Shown in pieces: positions 30,521 through 60,382 of a DNA stretch of 64,000 nt (its first letter is position 1; each line of letters opens with the position of its first letter). Under the pieces are notes generated by a model. It had not been told where the DNA came from and ran no database searches. It saw only the letters and a program-made list of their open reading frames with translations. Origin of the DNA: Burkholderiales bacterium. Its GTDB lineage: Bacteria > Pseudomonadota > Gammaproteobacteria > Burkholderiales > SG8-39. The stretch is from contig DATIZK010000012.1 of the NCBI GenBank assembly GCA_035517095.1, positions 8,843 to 72,842 of the forward strand, in the 5' to 3' direction. The translations under genes were made by a program, and so were the position numbers.

Positions 30521-32074
30521 TTGAATTCCCCAAGCGACACCCAGACCCAGGTCCTGATCATCGGGGGCGGCGCCACGGGCACGGCCATCGCGCGTGACCT
30601 CGCCTTGCGCGGCGTCGACTGCATCGTGGTCGAGAAGGACGACATCAACTCCGGCGCCTCGGGGCACAACCATGGGCTGCTCCACAGCGGCGCTCGCTAT
30701 GTCGCGAGCGACCGCCAGACGGCGAGCGAATGTCGCGCCGAGGGCGCCATCCTCAAGTCCGTGGCGGCGCAGACGATAGAGGATACCGGCGGCTATTTCG
30801 TCGCGGTGCAAGGCGACGACGAGCGCTACGTCGCCGACTTCCCCTCGCTTTGCGCGCGCGCGGGAATCGCCGCGCGCGCCGTGGACCTCGCCGCGGCGCG
30901 CGCGCTGGAACCGGCGCTGTCGCAACGCACGATCGCGGTGTTCGAGGTGCCGGACGCCTCGATCGACCCGTTCCGGCTCTCCCTCGAAAGCATGGCTCAT
31001 GCGCGCAGCCTGGGCGCGCGCCTGATGCGGCGCAGCCGCGTCCTGGGCTTCGAGCGCGACGGGCGTCGCATCCGCGCGGCGCGGATTCAGCGCGGCGGCG
31101 AGGAACTGCGCGTCGAGGCCGAGCAGATCGTCAACGCGGCGGGAGCCTGGGCGCGCGAGCTGGCGCTGCTCGCCGCAGCGCCGATCGAGATGACGTACTT
31201 CAAGGGAACGCTGCTGGTCACGCACACGCGCCTGGCCAGCCGCGTGGTGAACCGCCTGCGGCCGCCGGCCGACGCCGATATCCTGATGCCGGGCGGAACG
31301 GTCTCGCTCGTCGGCACGACTTCGACGCCGGTGGACGCCCTGGACGACATCTATCCGACCACGGCCGAGGCCGACCTGATCGTGGCCGAGGCCGCGCGCA
31401 TGCTGCCGGCGCTGGAGAGCATGCGCTATATCCGCGCTTTCGCCGGGGTGCGGCCGCTCGTCGGCGCGGCAGGCGGCGGCGGGCGCGCCATTTCGCGCGG
31501 CCACGCGCTGTTCGACCACGAGGATCAGGGTCTGGACAACCTGGCGACGATCACCGGGGGCAAGCTCACCACCTGCAGGCTGATGGCCGAACGCGCCGCG
31601 GACCTCGTGTGCCGGCGCCTCGGCGTGACGCGCCCCTGTCTGAGCGCCACGACGCCCCTGCCCGCGGCGCCGGAATGCGGGTGGACCGAGCCGGGACGCT
31701 CCGCGCGCGCCTCGATGCGTTCCCACGCGCGGGACGACACGCTGCTGTGCGAGTGCGAGCTGGTTCCGGGGCGCGCCGTCGACGCGATCTACGACGCGCT
31801 GCGCGCGCAGGGCGATGCACCGACGCTTACCGACATCGGCTTGCGCAGCCGCGTCGGCAAGGGTGCCTGCCAGGGGGCGTTCTGCGCCCCGCGCACCGTG
31901 GCCCACCTCTACAACCGCGGCGACTTTCAGGTGCGGCGCGGCCTGGCCGAGATTGTCGACTTCTTCGGCGAGCGCTGGCGCGGCGAGCGTGCGGTCCTGT
32001 GGGGCGAGCAGCTGGCCCAGGCCGAGCTGATGGAGGCGCTGCATTGCGGGCTTTTCGGAGAAGAACTGCATTGA
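30521..32074 (+). CDS. glpA: Anaerobic glycerol-3-phosphate dehydrogenase subunit A
   Basis: Track ORF, 517 aa (TTG start): VLIIGGGATGTAIARDLALRGVDCIVVEKDDINSGASGHNHGLLHSGARY (FAD fold). C-terminal BFD-like 2Fe-2S motif: LLCECELV...GKGACQGAFC. Confidence 0.93.
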   Translation: MNSPSDTQTQVLIIGGGATGTAIARDLALRGVDCIVVEKDDINSGASGHNHGLLHSGARYVASDRQTASECRAEGAILKSVAAQTIEDTGGYFVAVQGDDERYVADFPSLCARAGIAARAVDLAAARALEPALSQRTIAVFEVPDASIDPFRLSLESMAHARSLGARLMRRSRVLGFERDGRRIRAARIQRGGEELRVEAEQIVNAAGAWARELALLAAAPIEMTYFKGTLLVTHTRLASRVVNRLRPPADADILMPGGTVSLVGTTSTPVDALDDIYPTTAEADLIVAEAARMLPALESMRYIRAFAGVRPLVGAAGGGGRAISRGHALFDHEDQGLDNLATITGGKLTTCRLMAERAADLVCRRLGVTRPCLSATTPLPAAPECGWTEPGRSARASMRSHARDDTLLCECELVPGRAVDAIYDALRAQGDAPTLTDIGLRSRVGKGACQGAFCAPRTVAHLYNRGDFQVRRGLAEIVDFFGERWRGERAVLWGEQLAQAELMEALHCGLFGEELH

Positions 32075-33384
32075 GCCGCGCGCGGCACGACAGCTGCGAC
32101 GTCGCCGTGATCGGCGCCGGGATGGCGGGCATGGCGGCGGCGCTGTTCGCGGCGGAGCGGGGGCTGAGCTGCATCCAGGTCGGCAACAGCGGCGGCCTGC
32201 TGTTCGCGAGCGGCTTGCTGGACCTGCTCGGCGTGCAGCCGGTGGCCGAGGGACGGCTGTGGCAAAGCCCGTTCGAAGCCCTCGCGGCGCTGGCGCGCGA
32301 AGAGCCGCTGCATCCCCTGGCACGGGTCGACGCCGGGTCGATCCGCAGCGCGTTCGATCGCTTCGTCGCGGCCCTGGGCGGCGCGGGGCTGCACTATGCG
32401 CCGCTGGGCGAGCGCAACCGCAAGCTGCTCACCTCGATCGGGACGCTCAAGACCACCTATGGCGTGCCCAGGTCGATGATCGCGGGCGCCGACCTGCTGC
32501 ACGCGCGGCCGCCGTGCCTGCTGGTCGACTTCCGCGGGCTGCGCGAATTCAGCGCGGCTCAGATCGTCGCGACGCTGGGCGAACGCTGGCCGGGCCTGCG
32601 CCACCGGCAGATCGAGTTCCCGGACGGCGAATCCCTGCCCGAGCTCTACGGCGCCCACCTTGCACGCGCCCTGGAAAGCCCGCAGACGCGCGCGCGCGCG
32701 ATCGCCCTGGTGAAGCCCTTGCTGGGCGATGCGCACGCGGTCGGATTCCCGGCGGTGCTCGGCCTCGCGCGATGCGGCGACGTTCACGCGGCGTTCGAGG
32801 CGGGGCTGGGCGTGCCCGTGTTCGAGATCCCGACCATGCCGACCTCGGTGCCCGGGCTGCGGCTGTCGCAGGCGCTCGAGGCGCTGGTGGCGGCGCGCGG
32901 AGTCCGCCGCCATCATCAGGCCGGCGCGCGCGCGCTGGCGTTCGACCCGGACGGGGCCACGGCAACGCTGGAGCTCGAAGGCATTTCGGCCGGCGGGGGC
33001 GGTGAGCGCGTGCGCGCGCGCGCGGTCGTGCTCGCGACGGGGCGGTTCAGCGGCCGCGGGCTAAGCGCGGATCGCGCCGGCGTGCGCGAGAGCCTGCTCG
33101 GCTTGCCGGTGCAGCAGCCGGCTTCGCGCGCCGCGTGGCACCAGCGCGACTTCCTCGATCCCTCGGGCCATGCGATCAACCGCGCAGGCTTGCGCGTGGA
33201 CGACGCGTGGCGCCCGCTGGATGCGGGCGGAACGCCGGCCTGGCCGCGGCTGCATGCCGTCGGCTCGATCCTCGCGCATCAGGACTGGATGCGCTCGAAG
33301 TGCGGCGCGGGGCTCGCCATCGCCACCGCCTGGGCGGCCATCGACCAGGTCGCGCGCGAGCTCGGCGGGACTGCGGCGGGCTAG
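32071..33384 (+). CDS. glpB: Anaerobic glycerol-3-phosphate dehydrogenase subunit B
   Basis: In frame within track ORF 30730..33384 from TTG 32071 (TTGA overlap with the glpA stop): LSRARHDSCDVAVIGAGMAGMAAALFAAERGLSCIQVGNSGG...FEIPTMPTSVPGLRL...AVGSILA. The exact start is uncertain. Confidence 0.85.
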   Translation: MSRARHDSCDVAVIGAGMAGMAAALFAAERGLSCIQVGNSGGLLFASGLLDLLGVQPVAEGRLWQSPFEALAALAREEPLHPLARVDAGSIRSAFDRFVAALGGAGLHYAPLGERNRKLLTSIGTLKTTYGVPRSMIAGADLLHARPPCLLVDFRGLREFSAAQIVATLGERWPGLRHRQIEFPDGESLPELYGAHLARALESPQTRARAIALVKPLLGDAHAVGFPAVLGLARCGDVHAAFEAGLGVPVFEIPTMPTSVPGLRLSQALEALVAARGVRRHHQAGARALAFDPDGATATLELEGISAGGGGERVRARAVVLATGRFSGRGLSADRAGVRESLLGLPVQQPASRAAWHQRDFLDPSGHAINRAGLRVDDAWRPLDAGGTPAWPRLHAVGSILAHQDWMRSKCGAGLAIATAWAAIDQVARELGGTAAG

Positions 33385-33391
33385 GCCAGAC

Positions 33392-35080
33392 ATGTCGCCG
33401 GCGATCCTGCTCAGTGCCCTCTATGCGTCCCTGGTCCTGTGCGCGCTGGGCCTCGCCTGGCGCGCCTCGGCCTGGTTTCGCCTCCGGATCGGTCCCGATG
33501 CGCGCGACGTCGCCTGGTGGCAGCGCGTCGCCGCAGCGTTCCGCGGCGCAGCCTCGGCGCTCTTCGGCAGCAGGATGCCCCATCTCCTCGCCGCCTTGCT
33601 GCTCGACGTGCTGCTCCTGCGCCGGCTGTTCGCGCGCGAGAAGCTGCGCTGGACGGGGCACCTGCTCGTCGTGGTCGGCTTCACGCTGCTGCTGTTGATG
33701 CACGCGCTCGCGCCGCTGGTGAGCGCAAAGCTGTTGCCGGGCTACCAGGCGACGCTGGACCCCTATCTCTTCCTGCGCGATCTCTTCGGGGTGATGATTC
33801 TGGCCGGCGTGGCGCTGCTCTTGTCCGGACGGCGGGCGGAATTTCCGCCGCGGCGCCGTCTCATCGACTGGGCCTTCGTGGCGCTCCTGGCGGCGGTCGT
33901 CGTCACCGGATTCCTGTTCGCCGGCTACAAGATCGCGTCGCCCCGGGCCTTCTACCGCATGACGCAGCAGTTCACCGGCTCGACCGATCCGGTGAAGCTC
34001 GAGCCGCTGCGCGCGCTCTGGGCGAGCGAGTTCGGCGTGGCGTTCGGCGACCTGAAGCGGCCGATCGACCCGGACTTGATGGAGCGGGGGCGCAAAATGC
34101 AGCGCGATGCCTGCGCCTCCTGCCATTCGAAGCCTGCGTCCGCCTTCGTCTCCTACCCGGTCGCGCGCGCGCTGGCACCGGTGGAGCGCAACCTGGATGC
34201 GGGACGCGCGGATCTCTGGCTGCTGACTCTGCATGTGTTCGCCTGTTTGCTCGGCTTGGCGAGCCTGCCGTTGACGCGCTTTTTCCACGTCGTGGCGGCC
34301 CCCGCCAGCTTGCTGGTCGCCGCCGCGGCGCGGGATCGGGCGCCCTCGAGCGCCGGTCGCGCTGCGCAGCGCGCGCTGGCGCTGGACGCCTGCGTGCACT
34401 GCGGCATCTGCGATGCGCATTGCTCGGTGGCGCCGGTGGCGCGCCACCTGAACAACGCCTATCTCCTGCCCTCGCACAAACTCGACGCCACCGGCGCGCT
34501 CGCCCGCGGCCGGCTGCCGCGCGACGAGTCCGACCCGGTCGCCGAGGGCGCTTTCCTGTGCACCGACTGCGGGCGCTGCACCAGCAGCTGCCCGGTCGGG
34601 CTGGACCTGGCGGATCTGTGGCAGGCGGGGCGTGGCGACCTGGCCGCTGCCGGCTTTCCGGGGCCGGCGCAGTGGGTGCAGGCGCGCAGCGCGCTCGCGT
34701 GGGCCGAGTCCCTCGAAGCGGGCTCCGCGCCGCACCTGCCCGCCGATGCCGACGCCGCTTTCGCGCCGCTGTCGGCCGAGCGCGGCTCGTTCTCACGCTG
34801 CGTGCAGTGCCAGACCTGCACCAACGTCTGCCCGGTGGTGGCGCACAGCATCGACGCCGAGCACGGCGTCGACCTGACGCCGCAGAAGGTGATGAACCTG
34901 CTGCGCCTGGGCCTGCGCGATCTCACGCTGGGTTCGCGCATGGTGTGGGACTGCGCCGGCTGCTACCAGTGCCAGGAGAATTGCCCGCAAGGGATACGCG
35001 TGGCCGACATCATGCTGGAGCTGCGCGCGCTTTCGGTGCATCGGCTGGGCGCCGTGCGCGAGCACGGGAGGTCTTCATGA
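33392..35080 (+). CDS. Membrane Fe-S protein: NarI/DsrM-like polytopic N-domain fused to two 2x[4Fe-4S] ferredoxin-type domains (562 aa); occupies the glpC position
   Basis: Track ORF 33170..35080, trimmed to ATG 33392. It has 5-6 hydrophobic helices with His pairs (GH-x13-H and LH-x17-H). These are followed by CVHCGICDAHC, CTDCGRCTSSCP, CVQCQTCTNVCP and CAGCYQCQENCP. Confidence 0.8.
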   Translation: MSPAILLSALYASLVLCALGLAWRASAWFRLRIGPDARDVAWWQRVAAAFRGAASALFGSRMPHLLAALLLDVLLLRRLFAREKLRWTGHLLVVVGFTLLLLMHALAPLVSAKLLPGYQATLDPYLFLRDLFGVMILAGVALLLSGRRAEFPPRRRLIDWAFVALLAAVVVTGFLFAGYKIASPRAFYRMTQQFTGSTDPVKLEPLRALWASEFGVAFGDLKRPIDPDLMERGRKMQRDACASCHSKPASAFVSYPVARALAPVERNLDAGRADLWLLTLHVFACLLGLASLPLTRFFHVVAAPASLLVAAAARDRAPSSAGRAAQRALALDACVHCGICDAHCSVAPVARHLNNAYLLPSHKLDATGALARGRLPRDESDPVAEGAFLCTDCGRCTSSCPVGLDLADLWQAGRGDLAAAGFPGPAQWVQARSALAWAESLEAGSAPHLPADADAAFAPLSAERGSFSRCVQCQTCTNVCPVVAHSIDAEHGVDLTPQKVMNLLRLGLRDLTLGSRMVWDCAGCYQCQENCPQGIRVADIMLELRALSVHRLGAVREHGRSS

Positions 35081-35883
35081 AGTACGCGCTGTTCGCCGGC
35101 TGCAGGGCTTCGGGACAGCTGACGGCGTACGAACTGTCGGCGCGCGCCGTGCTCGGCCATCTCGGCGTGACCCTGGTCGATCTCGAGTTCGACTGCTGCG
35201 GCTATCCCGCCCGCGATGTCAGCCGCGACGCCTTCGTCGTCGCCGCGGCCCGCAATCTGGCCCTGGCCGAGCGCGCCGGACTCGACTTGCTGGCGCTCTC
35301 CAGCTGCTGCTTCGGCACGCTGCGCCACGCGATCCGGTTTCTCGGCGAGGACGCGGCGCTGCGCGCGCGCGTCGCGCAGGAGCTCGCCGCGCAGGGCCTC
35401 GCCTGGTCGGGGAAGAGCGCGGTCGAGCACCTGCTGCAGGTGCTGGCGCGAGACGTCGGCTTCGACGCGATCGCCGCGGCGGTACGCGCGCCGAGCGCGG
35501 GCCTGCGGGTCGCCGCCCAGTACGGCTGCCACGCACTGCGCCCGGGCGACGTGACCGGATTGGACAACCCGATGGCGCCGACGGTGTTCGAGACCTTGCT
35601 CGGCTTGACCGGAGCGACTCCGGTCGACTGGCCGCGTCGCCTCGATTGCTGCGGCGACCCGCTGCACCAGGCGGACGCGGCGCTGTCGCAGCGCATGGCG
35701 CGGGCCAAGATCGCCGATGCGCTCGACTCGGGCGCCGAGGCGATCTGCTCGGCCTGCGCTCACTGCCACTTGCGCTTCGACGCGGTCCAGAAGGACAGCG
35801 GCGATCCGCCGATTCGCACGCTGCTCTACACCCAGCTTCTCGGCCTGGCGATGGGGCTGCCCGCGAAATCTCTCGGCCTGTAG
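35077..35883 (+). CDS. HdrB/GlpC-C-terminal-like CCG-domain (Cys-rich) protein, 268 aa
   Basis: In frame within track ORF 33439..35883 from ATG 35077 (ATGA overlap): MKYALFAGCRASG...DCCGYPARD...YGCHALRP...DCCGDPLH...CSACAHCHLRF. This gives two CCG motifs. Confidence 0.8.
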   Translation: MKYALFAGCRASGQLTAYELSARAVLGHLGVTLVDLEFDCCGYPARDVSRDAFVVAAARNLALAERAGLDLLALSSCCFGTLRHAIRFLGEDAALRARVAQELAAQGLAWSGKSAVEHLLQVLARDVGFDAIAAAVRAPSAGLRVAAQYGCHALRPGDVTGLDNPMAPTVFETLLGLTGATPVDWPRRLDCCGDPLHQADAALSQRMARAKIADALDSGAEAICSACAHCHLRFDAVQKDSGDPPIRTLLYTQLLGLAMGLPAKSLGL

Positions 35884-35886
35884 GCC

Positions 35887-36630
35887 TCAGGCCGCGAAAT
35901 CCGGCCCGATGCGCTTGAGCGCGTCGGTCACCAGGCAGTCGACGCCCCAGCGCAGCAGCTTGCGCGCCGAGCGCCGGTCGTTCACCGTCCAGCACAGCAG
36001 CGCGTAGCCCGCGACGTGCACCGCCTCGGCCAGGCGCAGGTTGAGCGTGCGGTAGCTGCAGTGCAGCGACACGCACTCGAGATCGTGCAGCGTCTCGCGC
36101 CACTGCGGCGGCACGCGCGCCACCAGCAGCCCGCGCGGCATCTCGGGCGCGACGCTGCGCGCCGCCGCGAGCGCCACCGGCGAGAACGAAGACAGCAGCG
36201 GCGCCTGCGCCGCCCCGCGCCAGAGCTCGCGCGCGAGCAGCGCCACCGCCTCGCCGGTGCGGCGCTCGTAGCCGGTCGCGGGCTTGATCTCGACGTTCGC
36301 CCAAAGGCCGAGCTCGCGGCAAAGCCGTGCCGCCTGCTCGAAGGTCGGGATGCGCTCGCCGCGCCACTTCGGTCCGTGCCAGTGGCCGACATCCAGCTCG
36401 GCGATCTCGCGGTAGGGCGTGCTCGCGACCTGCCCGACGCTGCCGGCGGTGCGGGTCAGCGTCTGGTCGTGCATCAGCACCGGCGTGCCGTCGCCGGCCA
36501 GCATGACGTCGAACTCGACGCCTTTGAAGCCGAGCGAGGCGCCGAAGCGGATCGCGCCGAGCGTGTTCTCGGGCGCCAGCTTGCCTGCGCCGCGGTGCGC
36601 CAGGATGCGCGGATAGGGCCAGTGATTCAT
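35887..36630 (-). CDS. ugpQ: Glycerophosphodiester phosphodiesterase
   Basis: Track ORF, 247 aa: MNHWPYPRILAHRGAGKLAPENTLGAIRFGASLGFKGVEFDVMLAGDGTPVLMHD. Near-identical motif order to the E. coli UgpQ N-terminus. Confidence 0.92.
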   Translation of the reverse strand: MNHWPYPRILAHRGAGKLAPENTLGAIRFGASLGFKGVEFDVMLAGDGTPVLMHDQTLTRTAGSVGQVASTPYREIAELDVGHWHGPKWRGERIPTFEQAARLCRELGLWANVEIKPATGYERRTGEAVALLARELWRGAAQAPLLSSFSPVALAAARSVAPEMPRGLLVARVPPQWRETLHDLECVSLHCSYRTLNLRLAEAVHVAGYALLCWTVNDRRSARKLLRWGVDCLVTDALKRIGPDFAA

Positions 36631-36634
36631 GCCC

Positions 36635-37261
36635 TCAGGCGAGCTTCATGACTACCATGCCGAACACGTTGGCCGCCGAGTCGGCACGGTCGGACATGTT
36701 GGAGATGTGGCGGTAGACTTCACGCCGGTAGAATAGCGCGGGAAGCTTGGCCGGGTCCGTCGCCCCGGCAAAGAGCTCCTTGATCGCGGCGCGGTACTCG
36801 CGCTCCACCTTGTGCTCCTTCGCTCGGACTTCGCTCGCGTGATCGCCCGCTACGCGCGGATTTTGCGCCAGGCGCATGATCGCCGCCTGCAGCTCCTCGG
36901 CCTCCTCGCGCACCAGGCGCACCATGTAGCGGATGTGGCCGTCGGCGTCGACTTTGAGGATGGCCATTTCCTCGAGCGTCGTCAGCGCGTAGGTGACCAT
37001 GTCCTCGTAGCAGTGCGACAGGTTGAATATGTCCTCGCGGTCGAGCGGCGTGATGAACGTCTTGTGCAGCTCGTCGATCAGCACGCGGCGCAGCTCGCTC
37101 GCCTCCTCCGCGAGCCGGCGCAGCGCCGCCACCGCGCGCTCGTCGACCGCCTCGATGCTCGCCTCGAGGAAGCGCACGCCCTCGATCGTCTTGTCGGCCT
37201 GCGCGATCAGCATCGAGACGAACTTGTCCTTCTCGCTCAGGCCGCCGCGCAGCCAGCTCAT
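36635..37261 (-). CDS. DUF47-family (PhoU-like) Pit accessory protein, 208 aa
   Basis: Frame of track ORF 36635..38005 from ATG 37261 (ATGA overlap with the PiT stop): MSWLRGGLSEKDKFVSMLIAQADKTIEGVRFLE...TPLDREDIFNLSHCYEDMV. Confidence 0.85.
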   Translation of the reverse strand: MSWLRGGLSEKDKFVSMLIAQADKTIEGVRFLEASIEAVDERAVAALRRLAEEASELRRVLIDELHKTFITPLDREDIFNLSHCYEDMVTYALTTLEEMAILKVDADGHIRYMVRLVREEAEELQAAIMRLAQNPRVAGDHASEVRAKEHKVEREYRAAIKELFAGATDPAKLPALFYRREVYRHISNMSDRADSAANVFGMVVMKLA

Positions 37262-38289
37262 CGGTGCACCCCCAGGGCGCCGCCGCGCACGAGCAGCGCG
37301 TCGAGCACCCAGTAAAACGGCGCGGCGAGCAGCGCCGCGACCGGCAGCGTGACGAGCCAGGCGAGCGCGATCTCGCCGAGCACCCCCCAGCGCACCTTCG
37401 ACTTGCGCTCCGCGGCGCCCGCGCCGACGATCGAGGCGCTCACCACCTGGCTGGTGCTCACCGGCCCGCCGGCGATCGAGGCGCCAAGGATGACCGACGC
37501 CGAGGCGACCTGCGCGGTGAAGCCGTGGATCGGTCGCACGCGGTAGAACCCCACCCCGAGCGTGCGGATGATGCGCCAGCCGCCGAACGCGGTGCCGAGC
37601 CCGATCGCCGACGCGCACAGCGCGACTACCCACCAGGGCACGTAGAAATGGCTGGTAAAGCCCAGCATCAGGAGCCCGAGCGAGATCACCCCCATGGTCT
37701 TCTGGGCGTCGTTGCCGCCGTGGCTGAGCGCGAGCACCGCGCCGGTAAGAATCTGAAGGCGCGAAAGCGCGATCGAGGCGCGCGGCGTGGCGTTGCGCAG
37801 GACATAGCGCGTCGCCTGCATCACGGCGAGCGCGGCGGCGAAGCCGAGCAGCGGCGAGACGAGCAGCGCGAACACCACTTTCTCCAGGCCGTGCAGCTGA
37901 ATCGCCGAGAGACCGGCCGCGGCGGCGGCGGCGCCGACGATCCCGCCGAGCAGGGCGTGCGTGGAGCTCACCGGGACGCCGAGGTACCAGGCGCTCAGGT
38001 CCCACAGGCTCGCCGCGGCCAGCGCGGCGAGTACGGCCGCAAAGTTGATCGCCTCGGGCCGCGCCACCTCGGCGCCGACCGTCTCGGCCACCGCGATGCC
38101 GAGCAGGAACGGGCCGGCGAAATTCGCCACCGCGGCGAGCGTAAGCGCGCCGCGCACGCTCATAGCCTGCGACGCGATCAGCGTGGCGACGACGGTCGCG
38201 CTGTCATTGAAGCCGTTCAGGAAATCGAACGACAGCGCGAGCGCCAGCAGCGTGGCGAGCAGCAGGAACGATTCGGGCCCGTGCGCCAT
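37258..38289 (-). CDS. pit: Inorganic phosphate transporter, PiT family
   Basis: Track ORF, 343 aa: ...LALALSFDFLNGFNDSATVVATLIAS...LSHGGNDAQKTMGVI. Both PiT GANDxxN-type signature repeats are present. Confidence 0.92.
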   Translation of the reverse strand: MAHGPESFLLLATLLALALSFDFLNGFNDSATVVATLIASQAMSVRGALTLAAVANFAGPFLLGIAVAETVGAEVARPEAINFAAVLAALAAASLWDLSAWYLGVPVSSTHALLGGIVGAAAAAAGLSAIQLHGLEKVVFALLVSPLLGFAAALAVMQATRYVLRNATPRASIALSRLQILTGAVLALSHGGNDAQKTMGVISLGLLMLGFTSHFYVPWWVVALCASAIGLGTAFGGWRIIRTLGVGFYRVRPIHGFTAQVASASVILGASIAGGPVSTSQVVSASIVGAGAAERKSKVRWGVLGEIALAWLVTLPVAALLAAPFYWVLDALLVRGGALGVHR

Positions 38290-38302
38290 GTGTAGCGGCC
38301 GC

Positions 38303-39130
38303 TTATTTCGCGGTTTGCATCGCGATTCCCTCCGCGAAGCTCTTGCGGAACGCGATCAGCACCACGAGCGGCGGGAGCATCGACATGATGGTGCCGGCCA
38401 TGATCACGTTCCACGCGGGCGAGATCTGGTCGGTGGCGATCAGCATCTTGAGGCCGATCTGCACCACCCGCATGTCCTCGGTATTGGTCACGATGAGGGG
38501 CCACAGGTACTGGCTCCACATGAAGATGAACTCGATCACGAACAGCGCGGCGATGTTGGTGCGCGAGACGGGAACCAGAACGTCCCAGAAGTAGCGCAGG
38601 GGGCCCGCCCCGTCCATGCGCGCCGCGTCCGGCAGGTCGCGCGGCACGGTGAGGAAGAACTGCCGGAACAGCAGGATCCCGGTCGTGCTGGCGAAGAACG
38701 GGAACATCAGCGCCGAGTAGGTGTTTATCCAGTGGAAGTCGGCCATCATCTCGTAGGTCGGCAGGATCCGCACCGGCAGCGGCAGCATCTGCGTCACCAT
38801 GGTCATCGGGAACAGCAGCGCGCGGCCGCGGAACCTGAAGTGCGTGTAGGCGAACGCGGCCAGAAGCGAGAGCACGATCTTCACCACCGCCGCGCCGACC
38901 GAGATGACGGAAGTGACGAAGAACAGGCGTCCCATGTCGACGCGGTTCCAGGCCTCGAGCACGTTGTGCCACAGCTCGCCGCCGGGATAGAGGCGCGGCG
39001 GATAGACGTAGGCCTGCTGGAACGTCAGGGTGCTCACGATCAGCGCGTAGAACACCGGAAAGGCGATGATCACTACCAGCGCGATCAGCGCGGCGTGGCT
39101 CGCGCCCGCCTTCCATTGCCTGGGCGTCAT
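38303..39130 (-). CDS. ABC sugar-phosphate permease, UgpE paralogue (set 2)
   Basis: Track ORF, 275 aa: ...LFRQFFLTVPRDLPDAARMDGAGPLRYFWDVLVPVSRTNIAALFVIEFIFMWSQYLWPL. MalG/UgpE EAA loop. Clearly paralogous to the gene at 42615-43463. Confidence 0.88.
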   Translation of the reverse strand: MTPRQWKAGASHAALIALVVIIAFPVFYALIVSTLTFQQAYVYPPRLYPGGELWHNVLEAWNRVDMGRLFFVTSVISVGAAVVKIVLSLLAAFAYTHFRFRGRALLFPMTMVTQMLPLPVRILPTYEMMADFHWINTYSALMFPFFASTTGILLFRQFFLTVPRDLPDAARMDGAGPLRYFWDVLVPVSRTNIAALFVIEFIFMWSQYLWPLIVTNTEDMRVVQIGLKMLIATDQISPAWNVIMAGTIMSMLPPLVVLIAFRKSFAEGIAMQTAK

Positions 39131-39142
39131 GCGCTGCGCTCC

Positions 39143-40048
39143 CTAGCGGGCATAGATCGCCTTGCGCGTGGCGAAGCGCAGCTGGATCATCGCCGCCACG
39201 GAGATGACGACGAACACGATGCAGGACTCGGCCGAGGCCGCGCCCGTGTTCAGGTAGAGAAAGGCGTCGCGGTACAGCTTGTAGATGAGGATGTTGGTCG
39301 CGTCCCCGGGCCCGCCGTGGGTCATGATGTCGATCAGGCCGAAGACCTGGAAAAAGGCGTAGATCATGTTGACGAACAGCAGGAAGGTCGTCGTCGGCGA
39401 GAGCATCGGGAAGGTGATATCCCAGAACGTGCGCCACGGACCCGCGCCGTCAACCCGCGCGGCGTCGACGAACTCCTCGGGGATGTTCTGCAGCCCGGCG
39501 AGGAAGAACACGATGTTGTAGCCGAGCATCTTCCAGGTGGCGGCGGCGGACACCACAAGCAGCGCGAGCTGGCCGTTGGTCATCCAGTTCATGAGGTAGC
39601 CGCCCGAGAGCTTGGCGACGACGTACGGCACGATGCCGGTCGCGGGCGCGAACATGAGCGCCCAGATCGCACCTGCCACCGCGGGCGAGAGCGCGTAGGT
39701 CCAGATCAGCGCGATCTGGTAGAAACCCTGCGCCCTGAGCTTCTGGTTCAGCAGATGCGCGACCGCGAGCGAGACGCTCAGCCCCACCAGCATCACGAAG
39801 GCGGCGAACAGCAGCGTGGCGAGCGCGCTGGCGCGAAAGTCGGCCGACTCGAACAGCCGGGTGTAGTTTCGCAACCCGACGTAGACGGTCTTGGTGCCGA
39901 AAGCGGTGGAGGCGAAGAAGGATTCCCGCACGCTCTGCAGGAACGGGAAAACCAGGAATACGACGATCACCGCCACCGAGGGCAGTATCAGCAGGTAGGG
40001 CAGCAGAGGATGGCCCGGGAACCTCTCCTCCTCGACGACGTTCTCCAT
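39143..40048 (-). CDS. ABC sugar-phosphate permease, UgpA paralogue (set 2)
   Basis: Track ORF, 301 aa: ...NIVFFLAGLQNIPEEFVDAARVDGAGPWRTFWDITFPMLSPTT. Paralogous to the gene at 43463-44353. Confidence 0.88.
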   Translation of the reverse strand: MENVVEEERFPGHPLLPYLLILPSVAVIVVFLVFPFLQSVRESFFASTAFGTKTVYVGLRNYTRLFESADFRASALATLLFAAFVMLVGLSVSLAVAHLLNQKLRAQGFYQIALIWTYALSPAVAGAIWALMFAPATGIVPYVVAKLSGGYLMNWMTNGQLALLVVSAAATWKMLGYNIVFFLAGLQNIPEEFVDAARVDGAGPWRTFWDITFPMLSPTTTFLLFVNMIYAFFQVFGLIDIMTHGGPGDATNILIYKLYRDAFLYLNTGAASAESCIVFVVISVAAMIQLRFATRKAIYAR

Positions 40049-40115
40049 GGGCGCGATGATAGCCGCACGCCCGCCGCAGCGGGCGCGTGCGCCCGCTCCG
40101 GCGCGGCGCGGATTT

Positions 40116-41435
40116 CTACCGGTTCATCTGCGCGAAATCGGCCAGCAGCTGGTTGGCCTTGCGCGCCGCTTCGTCCACCGCGGCCTTGGGCGAAAGCTGG
40201 CCCGCGACGGCCTTCTCGATCGCGGTGCGCTCGAACTCGCGCACCTGCACGAACGGCCCCATCCGGACGCCGGTGGCGGCGGCCGTGTCGCGCCGCCCCG
40301 AGAGGATCTGCAGGAAGGCGGTGAGGTAGTTCTGATCCTTGCTGAACCAGCCTTCCCCGAGCAGCTCCTGCACCGCGGCATTGACACTCGGGAAGTAACC
40401 GGTTCCCTTGTGCCACTCGACCGCGACCTGGGTCTGACCGAGATACTTGAAGAACTCCCATACCGCGCGCAGCTGCTCCTTGCTCTGCCCCTTGGTGACC
40501 CACAGGCTGGCGCCGCCGATCACCGAGTTGCCGCGCGGATAGCCTTCGAACCGCGGCAGGAAGGCCGTCCCGACGCGGAAGGGCGATCCCTGCTCGATGC
40601 CCGCGAGCGAAGAGGTCGACTGGATCAGCATCGCGATCTGCCCGCTCTGGAACGCCGCATTGGCCGAGTATTCCGGCCCGCCGTAGATGAAGACGTTTTC
40701 CTTCGCGAGCCGCGCCCAGGTGTCGATGACCTTGACGCCGAATGGGCTATCGAACAGGACCTTGGTCGCCAGGCCGCTGCGGCCGTTGTCGTGGTCGGTG
40801 AAGAGCTGGTTGTGGACCGCGAACATCTGCTCGAACGTCCAGTCCGGCCAGCCGAACGAGAGCACGTGCTTGACCGCGCCACTCGCCAGCAGCTTCTTGC
40901 CGTCCGCCTCGAGCTCGTCCCAGGTCGTGGGCGGCCGGTTCGGATCCAGCCCCGCCTTCTCGAACAGGTCCTTGTTGTAGTACATGATCTCGCTCGAGGA
41001 GTTGAACGGCAATGACCACAGATTGCCGGCCGTCGAGTAGTAGTTGGTGATCGGAATCACGTACTGCGCCCAGTCCCAGGTTTCGCCCACCATCCCCGGG
41101 ATCTGGTACACGGGAGTGACCGCGCCGCTCGAAAGCATCGTCTGGGTCCCCACCTCGTAGGACTGGACGATGGTAGGCGCCGTGTGCGAGCGGTACGCCG
41201 TGATGTACTTCGTCAGGGTCTCTTCGTAGCTGCCGGTGTAGAGCGCCTTGAGCTCGATGTCGGGGTGGGCGGCGTTGAAGTCCTTCACGATCGCGTCCAC
41301 CACCTTTCCGTTCGAGCCGCTCATCGCGTGCCACCAGGTGATCTCGACCTTGCCGGCCGCGACGGCAGCTTGGGGCACGACACAGACGCCCAGCGTCCAC
41401 GCGAGCCCGATTAATAGCCGCTTTCCGAATTTCAT
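40116..41435 (-). CDS. Extracellular solute-binding protein, UgpB paralogue (set 2), about 439 aa
   Basis: Track ORF 40116..41492, trimmed to ATG 41435: MKFGKRLLIGLAWTLGVCVVPQAAVAAGKVEITWWHAMSGSNGKVV...PFNSSSEIMYYNKDLFEKAGLDP. It aligns by eye with UgpB at 44411-45727 but is diverged. Confidence 0.85.
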   Translation of the reverse strand: MKFGKRLLIGLAWTLGVCVVPQAAVAAGKVEITWWHAMSGSNGKVVDAIVKDFNAAHPDIELKALYTGSYEETLTKYITAYRSHTAPTIVQSYEVGTQTMLSSGAVTPVYQIPGMVGETWDWAQYVIPITNYYSTAGNLWSLPFNSSSEIMYYNKDLFEKAGLDPNRPPTTWDELEADGKKLLASGAVKHVLSFGWPDWTFEQMFAVHNQLFTDHDNGRSGLATKVLFDSPFGVKVIDTWARLAKENVFIYGGPEYSANAAFQSGQIAMLIQSTSSLAGIEQGSPFRVGTAFLPRFEGYPRGNSVIGGASLWVTKGQSKEQLRAVWEFFKYLGQTQVAVEWHKGTGYFPSVNAAVQELLGEGWFSKDQNYLTAFLQILSGRRDTAAATGVRMGPFVQVREFERTAIEKAVAGQLSPKAAVDEAARKANQLLADFAQMNR

Positions 41436-41528
41436 TGCAGACCTCCCATGTCGTCCGTTGCCCGCACGTGATTGCACGGGCAGGTTTGCCACTTATAGCT
41501 GCCCGGAACGCGCACCGTTTGACGCAGG

Positions 41529-42614
<1,086 letters not shown>

Positions 42615-43463
42615 CTATTTCTCCTGTTCGATGAGGCCCTTGACGAACCATTTCTGCATCAGGATCACCACCAGCGCCGGCGGCAGCATCGCGAGCATCG
42701 CGGTGGTCATCACCAGGTTCCAGTCGACCGACGCGTCGCCCCCAGGGATCATGCGCTTGATGCCGATCACCACCGTGTACATGCTCTCCTGGGTCGTGAT
42801 GAGCAGCGGCCACAGGTACTGGTTCCAGCCGTAAATGAACAGAATCACGAACAAGGCCGCGATGTTGGTGCGCGACAGCGGCAGCACCACGTCCCAGAAG
42901 AAACGCATCGGCCCCGCGCCGTCCATCCACGCCGCCTCCATCAGGGAATCCGGGATCGTGAGGAAGAACTGGCGGAACAGGAAAGTGGCGGTCGCCGACG
43001 CAATGAGCGGCAGCACCAGCCCCTGGTAGCTGTCGACCATGTGCAGCTCCGAGACCACCTTGTAGGTCGGAAAGATGCGCACTTCGACCGGCAGCATAAG
43101 CGTGATGAAGATCATCCAGAAGAACAGCATGCGCAGCCGGAAGCGGAAATACACGATCGCGTACGCGGAGATGATCGAGATGATGATCTTGCCGATCGCG
43201 ATCGACAGCGCCATGATGAGGCTGTTCACCATCATGCGGCCGACAGGCGCCGTGCTCGCGCCGGCCACACCGTGCCTGAGCACGGCGACGACGTTCTGCC
43301 ACAGCTCGCCGCCGGGCCACAGCGGCAAGGGCACCTCGCGCATGCGCTCCGCGGTGTGCGTTGAGGCGACAAAGGTGAACCACACCGGGAACAGGATGAC
43401 CACGATCGCCGTGATCAGCAGCGCATGGCAGAAGAAGTTCAGCCCGGGGCGATGCTCGATCAT
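42615..43463 (-). CDS. ugpE: sn-Glycerol-3-phosphate ABC transporter permease
   Basis: Frame of track ORF 42615..44261 from ATG 43463: [34 protein letters not shown]...FRQFFLTIPDSLMEAAWMDGAGPMRFFWDVVLPLSRTN. The ATG shares 1 nt with the ugpA stop. Confidence 0.9.
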   Translation of the reverse strand: MIEHRPGLNFFCHALLITAIVVILFPVWFTFVASTHTAERMREVPLPLWPGGELWQNVVAVLRHGVAGASTAPVGRMMVNSLIMALSIAIGKIIISIISAYAIVYFRFRLRMLFFWMIFITLMLPVEVRIFPTYKVVSELHMVDSYQGLVLPLIASATATFLFRQFFLTIPDSLMEAAWMDGAGPMRFFWDVVLPLSRTNIAALFVILFIYGWNQYLWPLLITTQESMYTVVIGIKRMIPGGDASVDWNLVMTTAMLAMLPPALVVILMQKWFVKGLIEQEK

Positions 43464-44353
43464 CAGTACTCGACCCTGCGCTCGATGTAGCGGAACTGGA
43501 TGACCGTGAGCGCGATCACGATAACCATCAGGATCACCGACTGCGCAGCCGAGCCGCTGATGTCGAGGCCCTTGAAGCCGTCGCGGTAGACCTTGTAGAC
43601 CAGGATCTGGGTCGACTGCATCGGGCCGCCCTCGGTCGCGGCGTCGATGACGCCGAAGGTCTCGAAGAAGGCGTAGACGACGTTGACCACCAGCAGGAAG
43701 AACGAGGTCGGTGACAGCAGCGGAAAGGCGATGGTGGCGAAGCGCTTGACCGGGCCGGCGCCGTCGATCGCGGCGGCTTCGGTCAACGAGCGCGGAATCG
43801 ACTGCAGCCCGGCGAGGAAGAACAGGAAGTTGTAGCTGATCTGGCGCCAGGTCGAGGCTATCACCACCAGGATCATCGCCTGGCCGCTGTAGAGCAGGTA
43901 GTTCCAATCGTAGCCGAACCACGCTCTTAGCACGTAGGTCACCAGGCCGAGCGAAGGGTTGAAGATGAAGCTCCACAGCACCGCTGCGACCGCCGGCGCC
44001 ACGGCGTAGGGCCAGATCACAAGGGTCTGGTACACCGTGGCTGCGCGCAGCAGGTAATCGCAACAGGCGGCAAGCACCAGGCCGATGCCCATCCCGGACA
44101 CGGCGACCAGCAGGCTGAACTCGGCGGTGGTCTTGAACGAGGCGAGGTAGCGCGGGTCGGCGAACAGGTCCCTGAAGTTGTCGAACCAGACGAACTGCGT
44201 ATTGGTGCCGAAGGCGTTCTGCAGCAGCACCGACTGCCACATCGCCTGCCCGGCCGGCCACATGAAGAATACGAGCGTGATCGCGAGCTGCGGCGCCACC
44301 AGCACGTACGGCAGCCAGGCGCTCGGGAAATGGGTCCGCTTCTCGGTGGCCAT
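43463..44353 (-). CDS. ugpA: sn-Glycerol-3-phosphate ABC transporter permease
   Basis: Track ORF, 296 aa: [35 protein letters not shown]...[31 protein letters not shown]. Confidence 0.9.
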
Positions 44354-44410
44354 AAAAAGGACGGCCCCTGGCGGGGCCGTCCCGTGCTCACTCCGGGCCG
44401 GCGGCCCCTG

Positions 44411-45727
44411 TTACCTGTTCTCGCGCTGGAACTTGCGCAGCAGCACGTCGCCGCGCTTGACCGCCTCGTCCAACGCCGCCTTGGCCGACTTCTTGCCCGT
44501 CCAGACCGCTTCGAGCTCCTCGTCGGTCACGTCGCGGATCTGCGGCAGGTAGCCGAGACGCACGCCCTTGGACACCTTGGTCGGGTTCCTGTCGAGCAGC
44601 TGCTTGACCGCGATGTCGGTCCCCGGGTTCTTGTCGTAATAGCCATCCTGCTTGGTCAGCTCGTAGGCCCCTTTGGTGATCGGCACGTAGCCGGTGTTCT
44701 GGTGCCAGCGCGCCTGGATCTTGGGCGAGGACATGAACTCGAAGAACGCCGCCGTCGCTTTCTCGCGGTCCTTCGACCTGCCGGTGAAGGTCCACAGGCT
44801 CGCGCCGCCGATGATCGTGTTCTGCGGCGCGCCCTTGGCGAACGCGTCGTACGGCAGGTAGGACATGCCGACGTCGAACTTGGCATTCTTCACGATGTTG
44901 GCGCGGGCCGCCGAGGACGAAGTGAGCATCGCGCAGTCGCCGGCGTAGAACTTGGCCTCGGGCTGCGTCGTGCGCCCGGCATAGGTGAAGCGGCCGTCCT
45001 TCGCCCACTTGCCGAGCTCCGCGATGTGTCTCACGATGGTCGGATTGTTGAACGTTAGCTTGGCCCCGAGCCCGCCGAAGCCGTTCTCCAGCGTCGCGAA
45101 TTGCACGTTGTCCCAGGCGCTCATGGTCTCCATCTGCACCCAGACCTCCCAGCCTGTGGTGAACGCGCAAGGCGCCGCGCCGCTGCTCTTGATCTTGGCT
45201 GCGTCTTCGCCCACCTCGTCCCAGGTCTTGGGCGGGTTGGCCGGGTCGAGTCCCGCCTTCTTGAACGCGTCCTTGTTGTAGAAGAACACCGGCGTCGAGC
45301 TGTTGAACGGCATCGAGATGAGTCGCCCGTGCGTATCGCTGTAGTAGCTCGCGACCGCCGGCATGTAGGCGCTCATGTCGAGCTTGTTGCCGGTCTGCTC
45401 CATCAGCTTGTAAACAGGCAGTACCGCCCCTTTGGCCGCCATCATGGTTGCCGTGCCGACCTCGAACACCTGCAGGATGTCCGGCGCGTTGCCGGCGCGG
45501 TAGGCGGCGATGCCCGCCGCCATGGTGTCGGCATAACCGCCCTTGTAGACCGGCACGACCTTGTAATCGGACTGCGAGGCGTTGAAATCGTCGGCGATCA
45601 GATTGACTTGGTCGCCCAGGGCCCCGGTCATCGCGTGCCACCACTGGATTTCGGTTACGGCGTACGACGGGACCGCCGTAAACAGGGCAGCACCGGCGAG
45701 CGCCGCGGTCAATAGCTTCATGCGCAT
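44411..45727 (-). CDS. ugpB: sn-Glycerol-3-phosphate-binding periplasmic protein
   Basis: Track ORF 44411..45823, trimmed to ATG 45727 (preceded by GAGGAGAG): MRMKLLTAALAGAALFTAVPSYAVTEIQWWHAMTGALGDQVN...PFNSSTPVFFYNKDAFKKAGLDP. Confidence 0.9.
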   Translation of the reverse strand: MRMKLLTAALAGAALFTAVPSYAVTEIQWWHAMTGALGDQVNLIADDFNASQSDYKVVPVYKGGYADTMAAGIAAYRAGNAPDILQVFEVGTATMMAAKGAVLPVYKLMEQTGNKLDMSAYMPAVASYYSDTHGRLISMPFNSSTPVFFYNKDAFKKAGLDPANPPKTWDEVGEDAAKIKSSGAAPCAFTTGWEVWVQMETMSAWDNVQFATLENGFGGLGAKLTFNNPTIVRHIAELGKWAKDGRFTYAGRTTQPEAKFYAGDCAMLTSSSAARANIVKNAKFDVGMSYLPYDAFAKGAPQNTIIGGASLWTFTGRSKDREKATAAFFEFMSSPKIQARWHQNTGYVPITKGAYELTKQDGYYDKNPGTDIAVKQLLDRNPTKVSKGVRLGYLPQIRDVTDEELEAVWTGKKSAKAALDEAVKRGDVLLRKFQRENR

Positions 45728-45808
45728 GGTTCTCTCCTCTTGTTGATTGAGTCCGCGTGATGGAGCCGCGGGCAAGTGTTCATTCAACTCCAGCTTATAA
45801 GCTCCGCG

Positions 45809-45824
45809 TTTGACCAGGGTCAAA
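45809..45824. promoter_or_regulatory. 16-bp palindrome TTTGACC-AG-GGTCAAA, 82-97 nt upstream of the ugpB start codon (candidate operator)
   Basis: Read directly: perfect 7-bp arms. It lies in the 207-bp divergent ugpB/amidase intergenic region. Confidence 0.3.
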
Positions 45825-45934
45825 CCGCAGCGCCGCCGACAGGATAGCGGATTATTATTGCAAAACAGTCACGCCGCTCCTCCCGAGGGCGTGCAGCGGC
45901 CAGTATATATACACCTCTGACCGAGGGGGCGCCG

Positions 45935-59754: not shown

Positions 59755-60353
59755 GCGCCGCGCCGCGTTTTCGGCAGCAGGGCGTGGTGCTGTTCATCGC
59801 GCTCATCGTCCTGGTCGCCATGTCGCTGGCCGGCATCGCGATGATGCGCAGCGTCGGCACCGGCGCCCTGATCGCGAACAACCTGGCGTTCAAGCAAAGC
59901 GCGACCAACTCGGCCGACTGGGGCATCGAGGCGGCGCGCACCTGGCTGACCAACAACTCGACCGGCAACACGCTGTACAACGACCTGCCCGGGGTGGCCG
60001 GCGGCAACGCCTACTACTCGACCTGGCAGTCGGGCGTCGACCTGCTGGGGCAAGACACGAGCCTGACGCCTTACGACTGGAGCACCGCGGTGAGCGTCGG
60101 AACCGACGCCGCCGGCAACAGCGTGAAATACGTGATCCAGCGCATGTGCGACGGATCGGGCGACCCGGCCGGCCTCAACTGCATCAAGGCGTCGGCGGCG
60201 GCGGGCGGCGCCGTCTCGTCGTCCGGCACCAAGGGCGCGGGCGGTTACGGCGGCGGAGCGCTTTCGGCTCCGGTGAACACGTTCTATCGCATCACAGTGC
60301 AGGTTACGGGACCGCGCAACACGGTCGGCTACGTGCAGGTCGTGGTGTTCTGA
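59751..60353 (+). CDS. pilX: Type IV pilus minor pilin PilX
   Basis: In frame within track ORF 59166..60353 from GTG 59751 (GTGA overlap): VSAAPRFRQQGVVLFIALIVLVAMSLAGIAMMRSVGTGALIANNLAFKQSA. PilX_N-type N-terminus. Confidence 0.8.
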   Translation: MSAAPRFRQQGVVLFIALIVLVAMSLAGIAMMRSVGTGALIANNLAFKQSATNSADWGIEAARTWLTNNSTGNTLYNDLPGVAGGNAYYSTWQSGVDLLGQDTSLTPYDWSTAVSVGTDAAGNSVKYVIQRMCDGSGDPAGLNCIKASAAAGGAVSSSGTKGAGGYGGGALSAPVNTFYRITVQVTGPRNTVGYVQVVVF

Positions 60354-60382
60354 ACCCAACGGTCCCGCTCGGGAGAAACACC

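Follow-up and report, generated by a model that had tools for sequence, protein, structure and literature searches.

The subject of this work is a cluster of four genes on a 64,000-nucleotide (nt) stretch of DNA from a Burkholderiales bacterium (assembly GCA_035517095.1, contig DATIZK010000012.1, positions 8,843 to 72,842 of the forward strand), which is referred to below as the window and has a G+C content of ~72%. Two genes for subunits of an anaerobic-type glycerol-3-phosphate (G3P) dehydrogenase, glpA and glpB, are followed there by two further genes, designated gene 3 and gene 4, at the place where a single glpC gene would be expected. The four co-directional genes fill positions 30521-35883. 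A protein 100% identical to the gene 3 product has been recorded from a metagenome-assembled genome (MAG) labelled Burkholderiales bacterium. Lengths are given in amino acids (aa).

30521-32074, + strand: glpA, flavin adenine dinucleotide (FAD) subunit of anaerobic-type G3P dehydrogenase, 517 aa (NCBIfam, alignment with E. coli GlpA)
32071-33384, + strand: glpB, 437 aa (NCBIfam, alignment with E. coli GlpB)
33392-35080, + strand: gene 3, 562 aa, NarI-type cytochrome domain fused to two HdrC-type 2x[4Fe-4S] domains (Pfam, NCBIfam, profile search, AlphaFold2 (AF2), Foldseek)
35077-35883, + strand: gene 4, 268 aa, HdrB-like, with two CCG domains and two predicted non-cubane [4Fe-4S] clusters (HdrB alignment, Pfam)

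The identity of the first two genes is clear. GlpA scored 466.2 bits with NF008313 (cutoff 425, passed) and 527.9 bits with TIGR03377, slightly under the cutoff of 552.8; it is 39% identical to E. coli GlpA (E 6e-118) and carries a C-terminal CxC...CxxC, BFD-like motif. GlpB scored 528.9 bits with NF003725 (cutoff 345, passed) and is 27% identical to E. coli GlpB (E 1e-30). The likely start codon of glpB is a TTG that overlaps the TGA stop codon of glpA (TTGA, 32071-32074). The glpB stop codon (TAG, 33382-33384) is separated by a 7-nt spacer (gccagac) from the ATG of gene 3 at 33392, and genes 3 and 4 overlap by the ATGA at 35077-35080. The tightness of all three junctions (TTGA, 7 nt, ATGA) indicates that the four genes are translationally coupled. 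Coordinates, lengths and junctions agreed with an earlier model-made reading of the sequence, here called the first-pass annotation, which had described two coupled genes of 562 and 268 aa behind glpA-glpB.

Domain architecture of the gene 3 and gene 4 products

The following features were delineated within gene 3, TM standing for transmembrane helix.

33392-34327, + strand: membrane domain, aa 1-312 (hydropathy, charge distribution, AF2, hhalign to NarI)
33659-33703, + strand: TM II His pair H90/H104 (H-x13-H), predicted proximal and distal heme b ligands (motif, conservation)
33923-34219, + strand: loop between TM IV and TM V, aa 178-276, ~100 aa, helical, predicted periplasmic (hhalign gap relative to NarI, conservation, loop profile)
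34112-34126, + strand: CxxCH, C241-A-S-C244-H245, classical heme c attachment motif (motif, conservation)
34232-34288, + strand: TM V His pair H281/H299 (H-x17-H), aligned with NarI His187 (distal) and His205 (proximal)
34340-34654, + strand: dicluster domain A, aa 317-421, C334xxC337xxC340xxxC344 and C390xxC393xxC396xxxC400P (Fer4_8, SdhB/FrdB profile matches)
34766-35065, + strand: dicluster domain B, aa 459-558, C470xxC473xxC476xxxC480P and C521xxC524xxC527xxxC531P (HdrC-like)

Hydropathy analysis placed five TM helices at about aa 3-30, 84-105, 125-145, 157-182 and 273-312, with an amphipathic stretch after TM I and Lys/Arg-rich loops at aa 23-84 and 147-156. An AF2 model built with 65 homologues showed the same helices (predicted local distance difference test score (pLDDT) 90.6; predicted template modelling score (pTM) 0.86). 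Hence, where "5-6 hydrophobic helices" had been counted before, five are transmembrane and a sixth is not, the rest being amphipathic helices according to both hydropathy and AF2. The predicted topology is that of NarI, with the N-terminus out and the C-terminus in, because the C-terminal Fe-S domains would be cytoplasmic.

The two His pairs described in the first-pass annotation, GH-x13-H and LH-x17-H, are present exactly as written, at aa 90/104 and 281/299. Conservation was counted in a hidden Markov model (HMM) alignment of 269 members of the gene 3 family (30-90% identity), the denominators being the members that cover a given position. His90 was kept in 220/221 members, His104 in 222/223, and His281 and His299 in 233/233 each, which is far beyond chance. 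Alignment of gene 3 to E. coli NarI with hhalign (probability 95.5%, E 1.3e-8, over TM III-V) placed H281 and H299 on NarI His187 and His205, the equivalence that had been proposed earlier from the i/i+18 spacing. In addition, the gene 3 family profile matched NarI in the PDB at E 1.4e-6. NarI homology together with conserved His residues had been set as a test beforehand; the four His are kept in at least 220/223 members, and Pfam Nitrate_red_gam (PF02665) scored above its gathering threshold (GA), though marginally so (23.8-24.3 bits, GA 22.9), in the region of TM V. On this sequence evidence, the N-terminal half of gene 3 is a NarI-type cytochrome b domain with two predicted hemes b.

Other anchors of this type share the same plan. 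NarI, QmoC, TmcC, HmcE and DsrM all have five TM helices with a His pair on each of TM II and TM V, and the TM II-IV part of gene 3 gave a match to the membrane half of QmoC (E 7e-7) and weaker ones to TmcC and HmcE. Gene 3 differs from these anchors by an insertion of about 50-60 aa between TM IV and TM V that carries the CxxCH, and its TM II His spacing is 14 compared to 10 in NarI. DsrM, TmcC and HmcE are moreover separate subunits without Fe-S domains. QmoC has the reversed domain order, with the HdrC-like part N-terminal and the TM part C-terminal; for this reason, and because NF038018, for which at least 300 bits are required, scored the full protein at 68 bits and the TM part at 29, membership of the QmoC family was rejected.

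All four CxxCxxCxxxC(P) motifs reported before are found in the C-terminal half of gene 3, and their Cys residues (16/16) are invariant in an alignment of 33 diverse homologues with 31-65% identity. That these motifs form two separate dicluster domains had not been noticed in the earlier reading. In agreement with this arrangement, Fer4_8 of Pfam matched gene 3 twice (E 3e-22). Domain A resembles the C-terminal domain of SdhB and the cubane domain of EMO, PDB profile matches to SdhB/FrdB being located at aa 316-421, and is 26% identical to the N-terminus of E. coli GlpC. Domain B matched HdrC chains at E 1e-19 in a profile search and at 6e-10 with the single sequence, and gave 73.6 bits with NF008369 over the GlpC N-terminus. 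Judged from its motifs, gene 3 should bind four cubane [4Fe-4S] clusters, two times the number in GlpC, HdrC or EMO.

Gene 4 is, as had been claimed, a separate HdrB-like CCG protein: it aligned end to end with the methanogen HdrB 8rvv_B (E 1e-45), Pfam CCG matched it twice (E 2e-20), and the motifs DCCGYP, DCCGDP and CSACAHC are all present. Its score with TIGR03288, the HdrB equivalog model, was 173.8 bits and hence under the cutoff of 345.15, which marks the protein as HdrB-like and not as a bona fide heterodisulfide reductase subunit. Among 69 homologues the conserved Cys residues are C9, C40, C41, C77 and C78 in the first unit and C151, C191, C192 and C227 in the second, together with C230 (78%). 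In CCG unit 1 (aa 75-78) an SxCC sequence replaces the CxxC of methanogen HdrB, Cys77 being conserved in 100% and Cys78 in 97% of the homologues; in unit 2, Cys230 is found in 78% and Cys224 in 87%. The ligation of the gene 4 clusters may differ from that in HdrB.

Genes 3 and 4 contain the kinds of module known from E. coli GlpC, which has an HdrC-type 2x[4Fe-4S] domain and two CCG domains, and GlpA and GlpB are orthologous in the two systems. The N-terminus of GlpC can be aligned with dicluster domain A of gene 3 as well as with domain B. GlpC however is a single chain of 396 aa without TM helices or hemes, whereas here two genes and a 310-aa membrane domain are present, and with the GlpC model (TIGR03379 / NF008369, cutoff 278) gene 3 scored 73.6 and gene 4 14.8 bits, so that both failed the membership test for GlpC. 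The possibility that genes 3 and 4 are simply a split GlpC was rejected on two grounds: gene 4 is strongly similar to HdrB (E 1e-45) and barely so to the CCG half of GlpC (E 0.066), and gene 3 has two dicluster domains as well as a cytochrome domain. Nor was the split, membrane-anchored form found described as a standard GlpC; the names given to it in the sources are only '4Fe-4S dicluster domain-containing protein' or 'HdrC/NarI'.

The CxxCH-containing loop of gene 3

The first-pass annotation had called the membrane domain a di-heme-type anchor. The four conserved His account for two hemes b, as stated, but the description is probably incomplete because the CxxCH in the predicted periplasmic loop suggests a third, c-type heme. 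Neither this motif nor Met190 was mentioned in that reading; both came to light in the alignment of homologues. Relative to NarI, the loop between TM IV and TM V is mostly an insertion (hhalign). Both Cys and the His of the CxxCH are invariant in 231/232 family members that cover the motif, Met190 is kept in 237/238, and Ser183 and Trp210 are also essentially universal. A profile of the loop only, searched against all PDB sequences, matched c-type cytochromes almost exclusively: the heme subunit of flavocytochrome c (3vrd_A, E 3.5e-5), CcoP (2e-4 to 3e-3), cytochromes c1 and QcrC, the match covering the helix-CxxCH heme site. The NCBIfam model for di-heme cytochrome c peroxidase matched aa 223-264 at E 0.044, and Pfam Cytochrom_C1 gave E 0.27, below significance. 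The conservation and the loop profile make it likely that gene 3 covalently binds a third heme, of c-type, at its CxxCH, and that it is a b2c tri-heme anchor.

The motif might instead be free of covalent heme, its His serving as ligand to an extra, non-covalent heme or the whole forming a structural or metal site, in which case the anchor would be a plain di-heme or a b3 cytochrome b. A precedent exists in the EMO of S. aciditrophicus (SaEMO) and in modelled HdrDE, whose distal sites contain an additional, third heme, the non-covalent 'twin' heme (bioRxiv 10.64898/2026.08.18.745454), and the absence of a cytochrome c fold among the Foldseek matches of the loop, together with the insignificant scores of the Pfam cytochrome c models, would be in line with it. 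A simple His ligand, however, would not need the two Cys that are invariant along with it. Furthermore, the flanks of the motif match the heme-binding sites of flavocytochrome c, CcoP and cytochrome c1, and the loop lies on the heme-attachment side of the membrane according to the charge distribution and the NarI topology from 1Q16. On this particular question we therefore regard a non-covalent site as unlikely.

A literature search found no paper on a NarI-type protein with a CxxCH that is fused to HdrC. It is conceivable, if somewhat doubtful, that gene 3 represents an undescribed NarI-type b2c tri-heme cytochrome, with His245 and probably Met190 as heme c ligands, in which heme c is stacked on or beside the distal heme b. 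Such an arrangement might provide the quinone with a special site of low potential, as the covalent counterpart of the 'twin heme' of EMO; or else it might allow direct exchange between cytoplasmic dehydrogenases (GlpAB, HdrA-like flavoproteins, sulfur-relay HdrD-like modules) and periplasmic cytochromes, bypassing the quinone pool.

Distribution, gene order and neighbourhood

The gene 3 family is small: an exhaustive search of 1.84 billion cluster representatives with gene 3 yielded 135 clusters at E <=1e-30. A scan of species-representative genomes gave 80 loci with a member of the family. GlpAB linkage was evaluated at the loci with upstream sequence available, and the order glpA-glpB-gene 3-gene 4 was found in 27/27 GlpAB-linked loci. 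These belong to Betaproteobacteria (including Rhodocyclaceae, Sulfuritalea and Casimicrobiaceae), Myxococcota, Oligoflexales and Spirochaetota, four phyla in all, and they form a single clade in a neighbour-joining tree.

A metagenome scan seeded with GlpB, which is biased to the nearest relatives of this GlpB, provided 62 informative loci; the word-indexed homologue searches made with gene 4 and GlpB recovered close relatives only, at least 69-73% identical. The gene 3 type follows glpB at 42/62 of these loci, a soluble pair of HdrC-like and HdrB-like proteins at 3/62 (once with an HdrA-like gene), and neither at 17/62. E. coli-type glpC was seen at none (0/62). Canonical glpC was likewise found neither in the window nor at any of the 80 genome loci, and the idea that it is hidden nearby was rejected on its absence from the window and 160 related loci.

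These results bear on whether genes 3 and 4 are in fact unrelated neighbours of glpAB, placed there by chance or forming a separate respiratory module. The pair does occur without glpAB, namely at about 52 loci of Desulfobacterota. The genes are nevertheless translationally coupled, their order is kept across four phyla in a monophyletic clade, 42/62 informative metagenome loci share it, and no alternative GlpC is present. Chance adjacency was rejected on synteny and monophyly, and we consider an independent module extremely improbable as well.

At about 35 of the 52 Desulfobacterota loci (L026-L079) the pair is adjoined, usually on its downstream side, by a gene for an HdrA/HdrL-like flavoprotein of ~1000 aa with two Pyr_redox_2 regions and Fer4 (for example L037, 8001-13737, and L078, 7983-13642; the lineages include Eth-SRB1 and Eth-SRB2 MAGs). 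Judged by its gene content, this arrangement would give sulfate-reducer lineages a membrane-bound module of the composition HdrA-HdrB-(HdrC2-cytochrome b/c). There are also fused single-chain relatives (P0193, P0196 and P0232; 711-716 aa for the latter two), in which the CxxCH-bearing NarI-type domain known from gene 3 is joined to a single dicluster domain and a pair of CCG domains. One of them lies directly behind dsrE-dsrE-dsrH-tusA and another is followed by a gene of the GCV_H/lipoate-binding type (loci L084, 345-3888, P0232, and L083, 45-2676, P0196); by their gene content, these contexts point to sulfur relay or sHdr-like systems. Finally, at L143 (4133-12210; also L146 and L162) glpA-glpB is followed by genes for a soluble 192-aa HdrC-like protein, a 289-aa HdrB-like protein and a 1017-aa HdrA/L-like flavoprotein, with no membrane domain, which may form a soluble GlpAB-Hdr-like complex.

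In the window, the four-gene cluster faces a convergent set of genes.

35887-36630, - strand: ugpQ-type glycerophosphodiester phosphodiesterase (NCBIfam NF006989, 340 bits)
36635-38289, - strand: PitA-like transporter and 206-aa partner
38303-39130, - strand: ugpE (NCBIfam UgpE, E 2e-73)
39143-40048, - strand: ugpA (NCBIfam UgpA, E 4e-69)
40116-41492, - strand: ugpB (NCBIfam UgpB, E 2e-97)

The ugpBAE, ugpQ and Pit-like neighbours indicate that the locus is devoted to G3P acquisition and oxidation. The PitA-like phosphate/sulfate permease (343 aa), situated between ugpQ and ugpE, ties phosphate handling to the G3P locus; the 206-aa protein next to it had no NCBIfam match and is possibly a PhoU-like/DUF47 partner. 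Two compositional features were also observed. The region 38001-46000 (ugpE/A/B and beyond) has a G+C content of 0.63-0.67 compared to about 0.70-0.75 in the rest of the window, which may reflect foreign origin or membrane-protein composition, and the 3' end of the window (60001-64000) has a GC skew of -0.10 to -0.12 and an AT skew of +0.17 to +0.19, unlike the rest.

Relation to known complexes and proposed electron route

The first-pass annotation had likened the gene pair to the DsrMK/HdrED/HmeCD type of module. This comparison held up, the best structural match to gene 3 being EtfD of M. smegmatis (PDB 9OJN; Foldseek E 3e-6 over 513 columns), a member of the ETF:(methyl)menaquinone oxidoreductases (EMO/EtfD), which the gene 3 family profile also matched (E 1e-7); sequence identity is only ~15%. 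Like genes 3 and 4, EMO/EtfD consists of a NarI-type heme domain with five TM helices, an HdrC-type cubane domain and an HdrB-type CCG domain, in the same order; it receives electrons from a cytoplasmic flavoprotein, and the His residues of TM V have the same i/i+18 spacing. The differences are that EMO is one chain with one cubane domain, while here two chains and two cubane domains (four clusters) are present; that EMO has three His (in SaEMO plus the non-covalent twin heme), as compared to four His and a CxxCH on a TM IV-V loop that is ~60 aa longer; and that the partner is ETF in the one case and GlpAB in the other. The route flavin to non-cubane cluster to cubane cluster to heme b to menaquinone has been established experimentally for EtfD/EMO (bioRxiv 10.64898/2026.08.18.745454; PMC13083937). 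HdrDE, the membrane-bound heterodisulfide reductase of methanogens, also combines NarI-type cytochrome, HdrC-like and HdrB-like modules. There the cytochrome, HdrE, is separate and the HdrC and HdrB parts are fused as HdrD, whereas in the present case it is the HdrB-like protein that stands alone, and the cytochrome is joined to the HdrC-type domains. A heterodisulfide substrate as in HdrDE/HdrABC is not indicated here. The scores lie under the equivalog cutoffs.

The association of GlpAB with a membrane-bound Hdr-like anchor is prior art at the genomic level, in the form of a fused single chain. In the genome of Desulfobacterium autotrophicum, reported in 2009, fused 'HdrF' proteins (TM + HdrC + HdrB) cluster with glpAB and etfAB; HdrF1 and HdrF2 are the ones clustered with glpAB, and their architecture is that of EMO/EtfD (PMC2702500). 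The first-pass annotation had stated that no characterised example was known. This stands as regards biochemical work, of which we found none, but the link between glpAB and 'HdrF' had been noted in that genome (PMC2702500). The present system stands apart by its division over two genes, its two cubane domains in place of one, its complete set of four His, the conserved CxxCH loop and its spread outside sulfate reducers.

Taken together, the gene identities, the domain architecture, the conservation of the predicted ligands, the homology to NarI, HdrC and HdrB, the synteny and the absence of a canonical glpC nearby support the earlier reading as a G3P:quinone oxidoreductase wired via b-type hemes. 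The four genes probably encode one membrane-bound G3P dehydrogenase complex. In this complex the cytoplasmic flavoproteins GlpA and GlpB would oxidise G3P to dihydroxyacetone phosphate (DHAP) and deliver the electrons to the two non-cubane Fe-S clusters of gene 4. Next on the route would come gene 3, first its two HdrC-type domains with four cubane [4Fe-4S] clusters and then the proximal (H90/H299) and the distal heme b (H104/H281), from which the electrons would enter the quinone pool. The heme c at the periplasmic CxxCH would probably lie beside the distal heme and be part of the exit site. Complex formation, heme occupancy, the acceptor, the energetics and, after the model of EMO/EtfD and NarI, the cofactor order are inferences, as is the earlier suggestion that quinone specificity or energy coupling could differ from those of classical GlpABC. 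A role in G3P catabolism fits, since ugpBAE and ugpQ are neighbours.

Several points weigh against this proposal. Transfer of electrons from G3P to ubiquinone or menaquinone is exergonic, as seen from the midpoint potentials, and a di-heme wire to the periplasmic side is therefore not needed thermodynamically; a distal quinone site would in fact consume proton-motive force. The AF2 model of the isolated loop (pLDDT 83) had no cytochrome c fold match in the PDB by Foldseek, so that the heme c assignment rests on a sequence match of ~30 residues and on conservation. Gene 4 resembles catalytic HdrB (E 1e-45) much more than it does the CCG half of GlpC (E 0.066), which leaves room for thiol/disulfide chemistry. 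As to precedent, the literature search for biochemical work on GlpAB with a membrane-bound Hdr-like anchor was negative, and all 80 genome loci with the gene 3 family (80/80) are from MAGs with no cultured isolate among them, which probably explains why the module is uncharacterised.

The energetic argument leads to the alternative of a transmembrane electron exporter, in which cytoplasmic G3P electrons would cross the membrane via the two hemes b and leave by the periplasmic heme c to soluble c-type cytochromes, which would pass them on to denitrification enzymes, oxidases or extracellular acceptors; for the paralogues of Desulfobacterota the opposite direction is conceivable, with electrons from periplasmic cytochromes moving inward along this wire. 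Such a function would account for a distal quinone site being thermodynamically useless for G3P oxidation. It would suit the near-invariance of the CxxCH and Met190 in the predicted periplasmic loop, and the TM domain is similar to TmcC and HmcE, which anchor complexes engaged in electron exchange with periplasmic cytochromes c. A cytochrome c gene is however not conserved in the operon, a single heme c buried against the membrane domain may be inaccessible to partners, and the route would waste energy. In addition, the reaction partners of NarI, EMO and HdrE are in all cases quinones or methanophenazine (bioRxiv 10.64898/2026.08.18.745454). On balance we judge export improbable.

The nature of gene 4 leads to another alternative, namely that this subunit is catalytic and, in the manner of HdrB/DsrK, links G3P oxidation or the quinone pool to the reduction of a disulfide, a persulfide or a protein-bound sulfur carrier. 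Its full-length homology to HdrB with ten conserved Cys, the fused CxxCH-bearing relatives next to dsrE-dsrE-dsrH-tusA and a GCV_H/lipoate-type protein, and the pairing of the Desulfobacterota paralogues with an HdrA/L-like flavoprotein all speak for it. Yet a thiol-carrier gene is absent from the glpAB operons, the TIGR03288 score (174 bits) is well under 345, and CCG unit 1 has CC where HdrB has CxxC. Moreover, non-cubane clusters serve electron transfer in GlpC, SdhE and EMO/EtfD (bioRxiv 10.64898/2026.08.18.745454). We hold a catalytic gene 4 to be less probable still than an exporter, and keep quinone reduction via the hemes of gene 3 as the preferred reading.

GlpABC is the textbook anaerobic G3P dehydrogenase, and how GlpC passes electrons to quinone is poorly defined (bioRxiv 10.64898/2026.08.18.745454). 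In the variant analysed here GlpC is exchanged for a complete, readable wire, predicted to comprise two or three hemes besides two non-cubane and four cubane clusters. In the sampled GlpB subfamily the gene 3 type is the predominant partner of glpAB, and its hosts are uncultured denitrifying-type Betaproteobacteria, Myxococcota, Spirochaetota and relatives. We conclude that this is a real, uncharacterised variant of a respiratory electron wire, which most likely carries G3P electrons to quinone. It would extend the principle of EMO and HdrDE, whose structures date from 2025-2026, from ETF to a second flavoprotein dehydrogenase, and it suggests that the heme/Fe-S anchor has been combined with at least three cytoplasmic modules. 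The predicted presence of a transmembrane heme wire for an exergonic reaction, that of G3P with quinone, poses an energetic puzzle. Most of the added value depends on whether the b2c tri-heme anchor is true; if so, its heme c would constitute a new cofactor arrangement in the NarI family.

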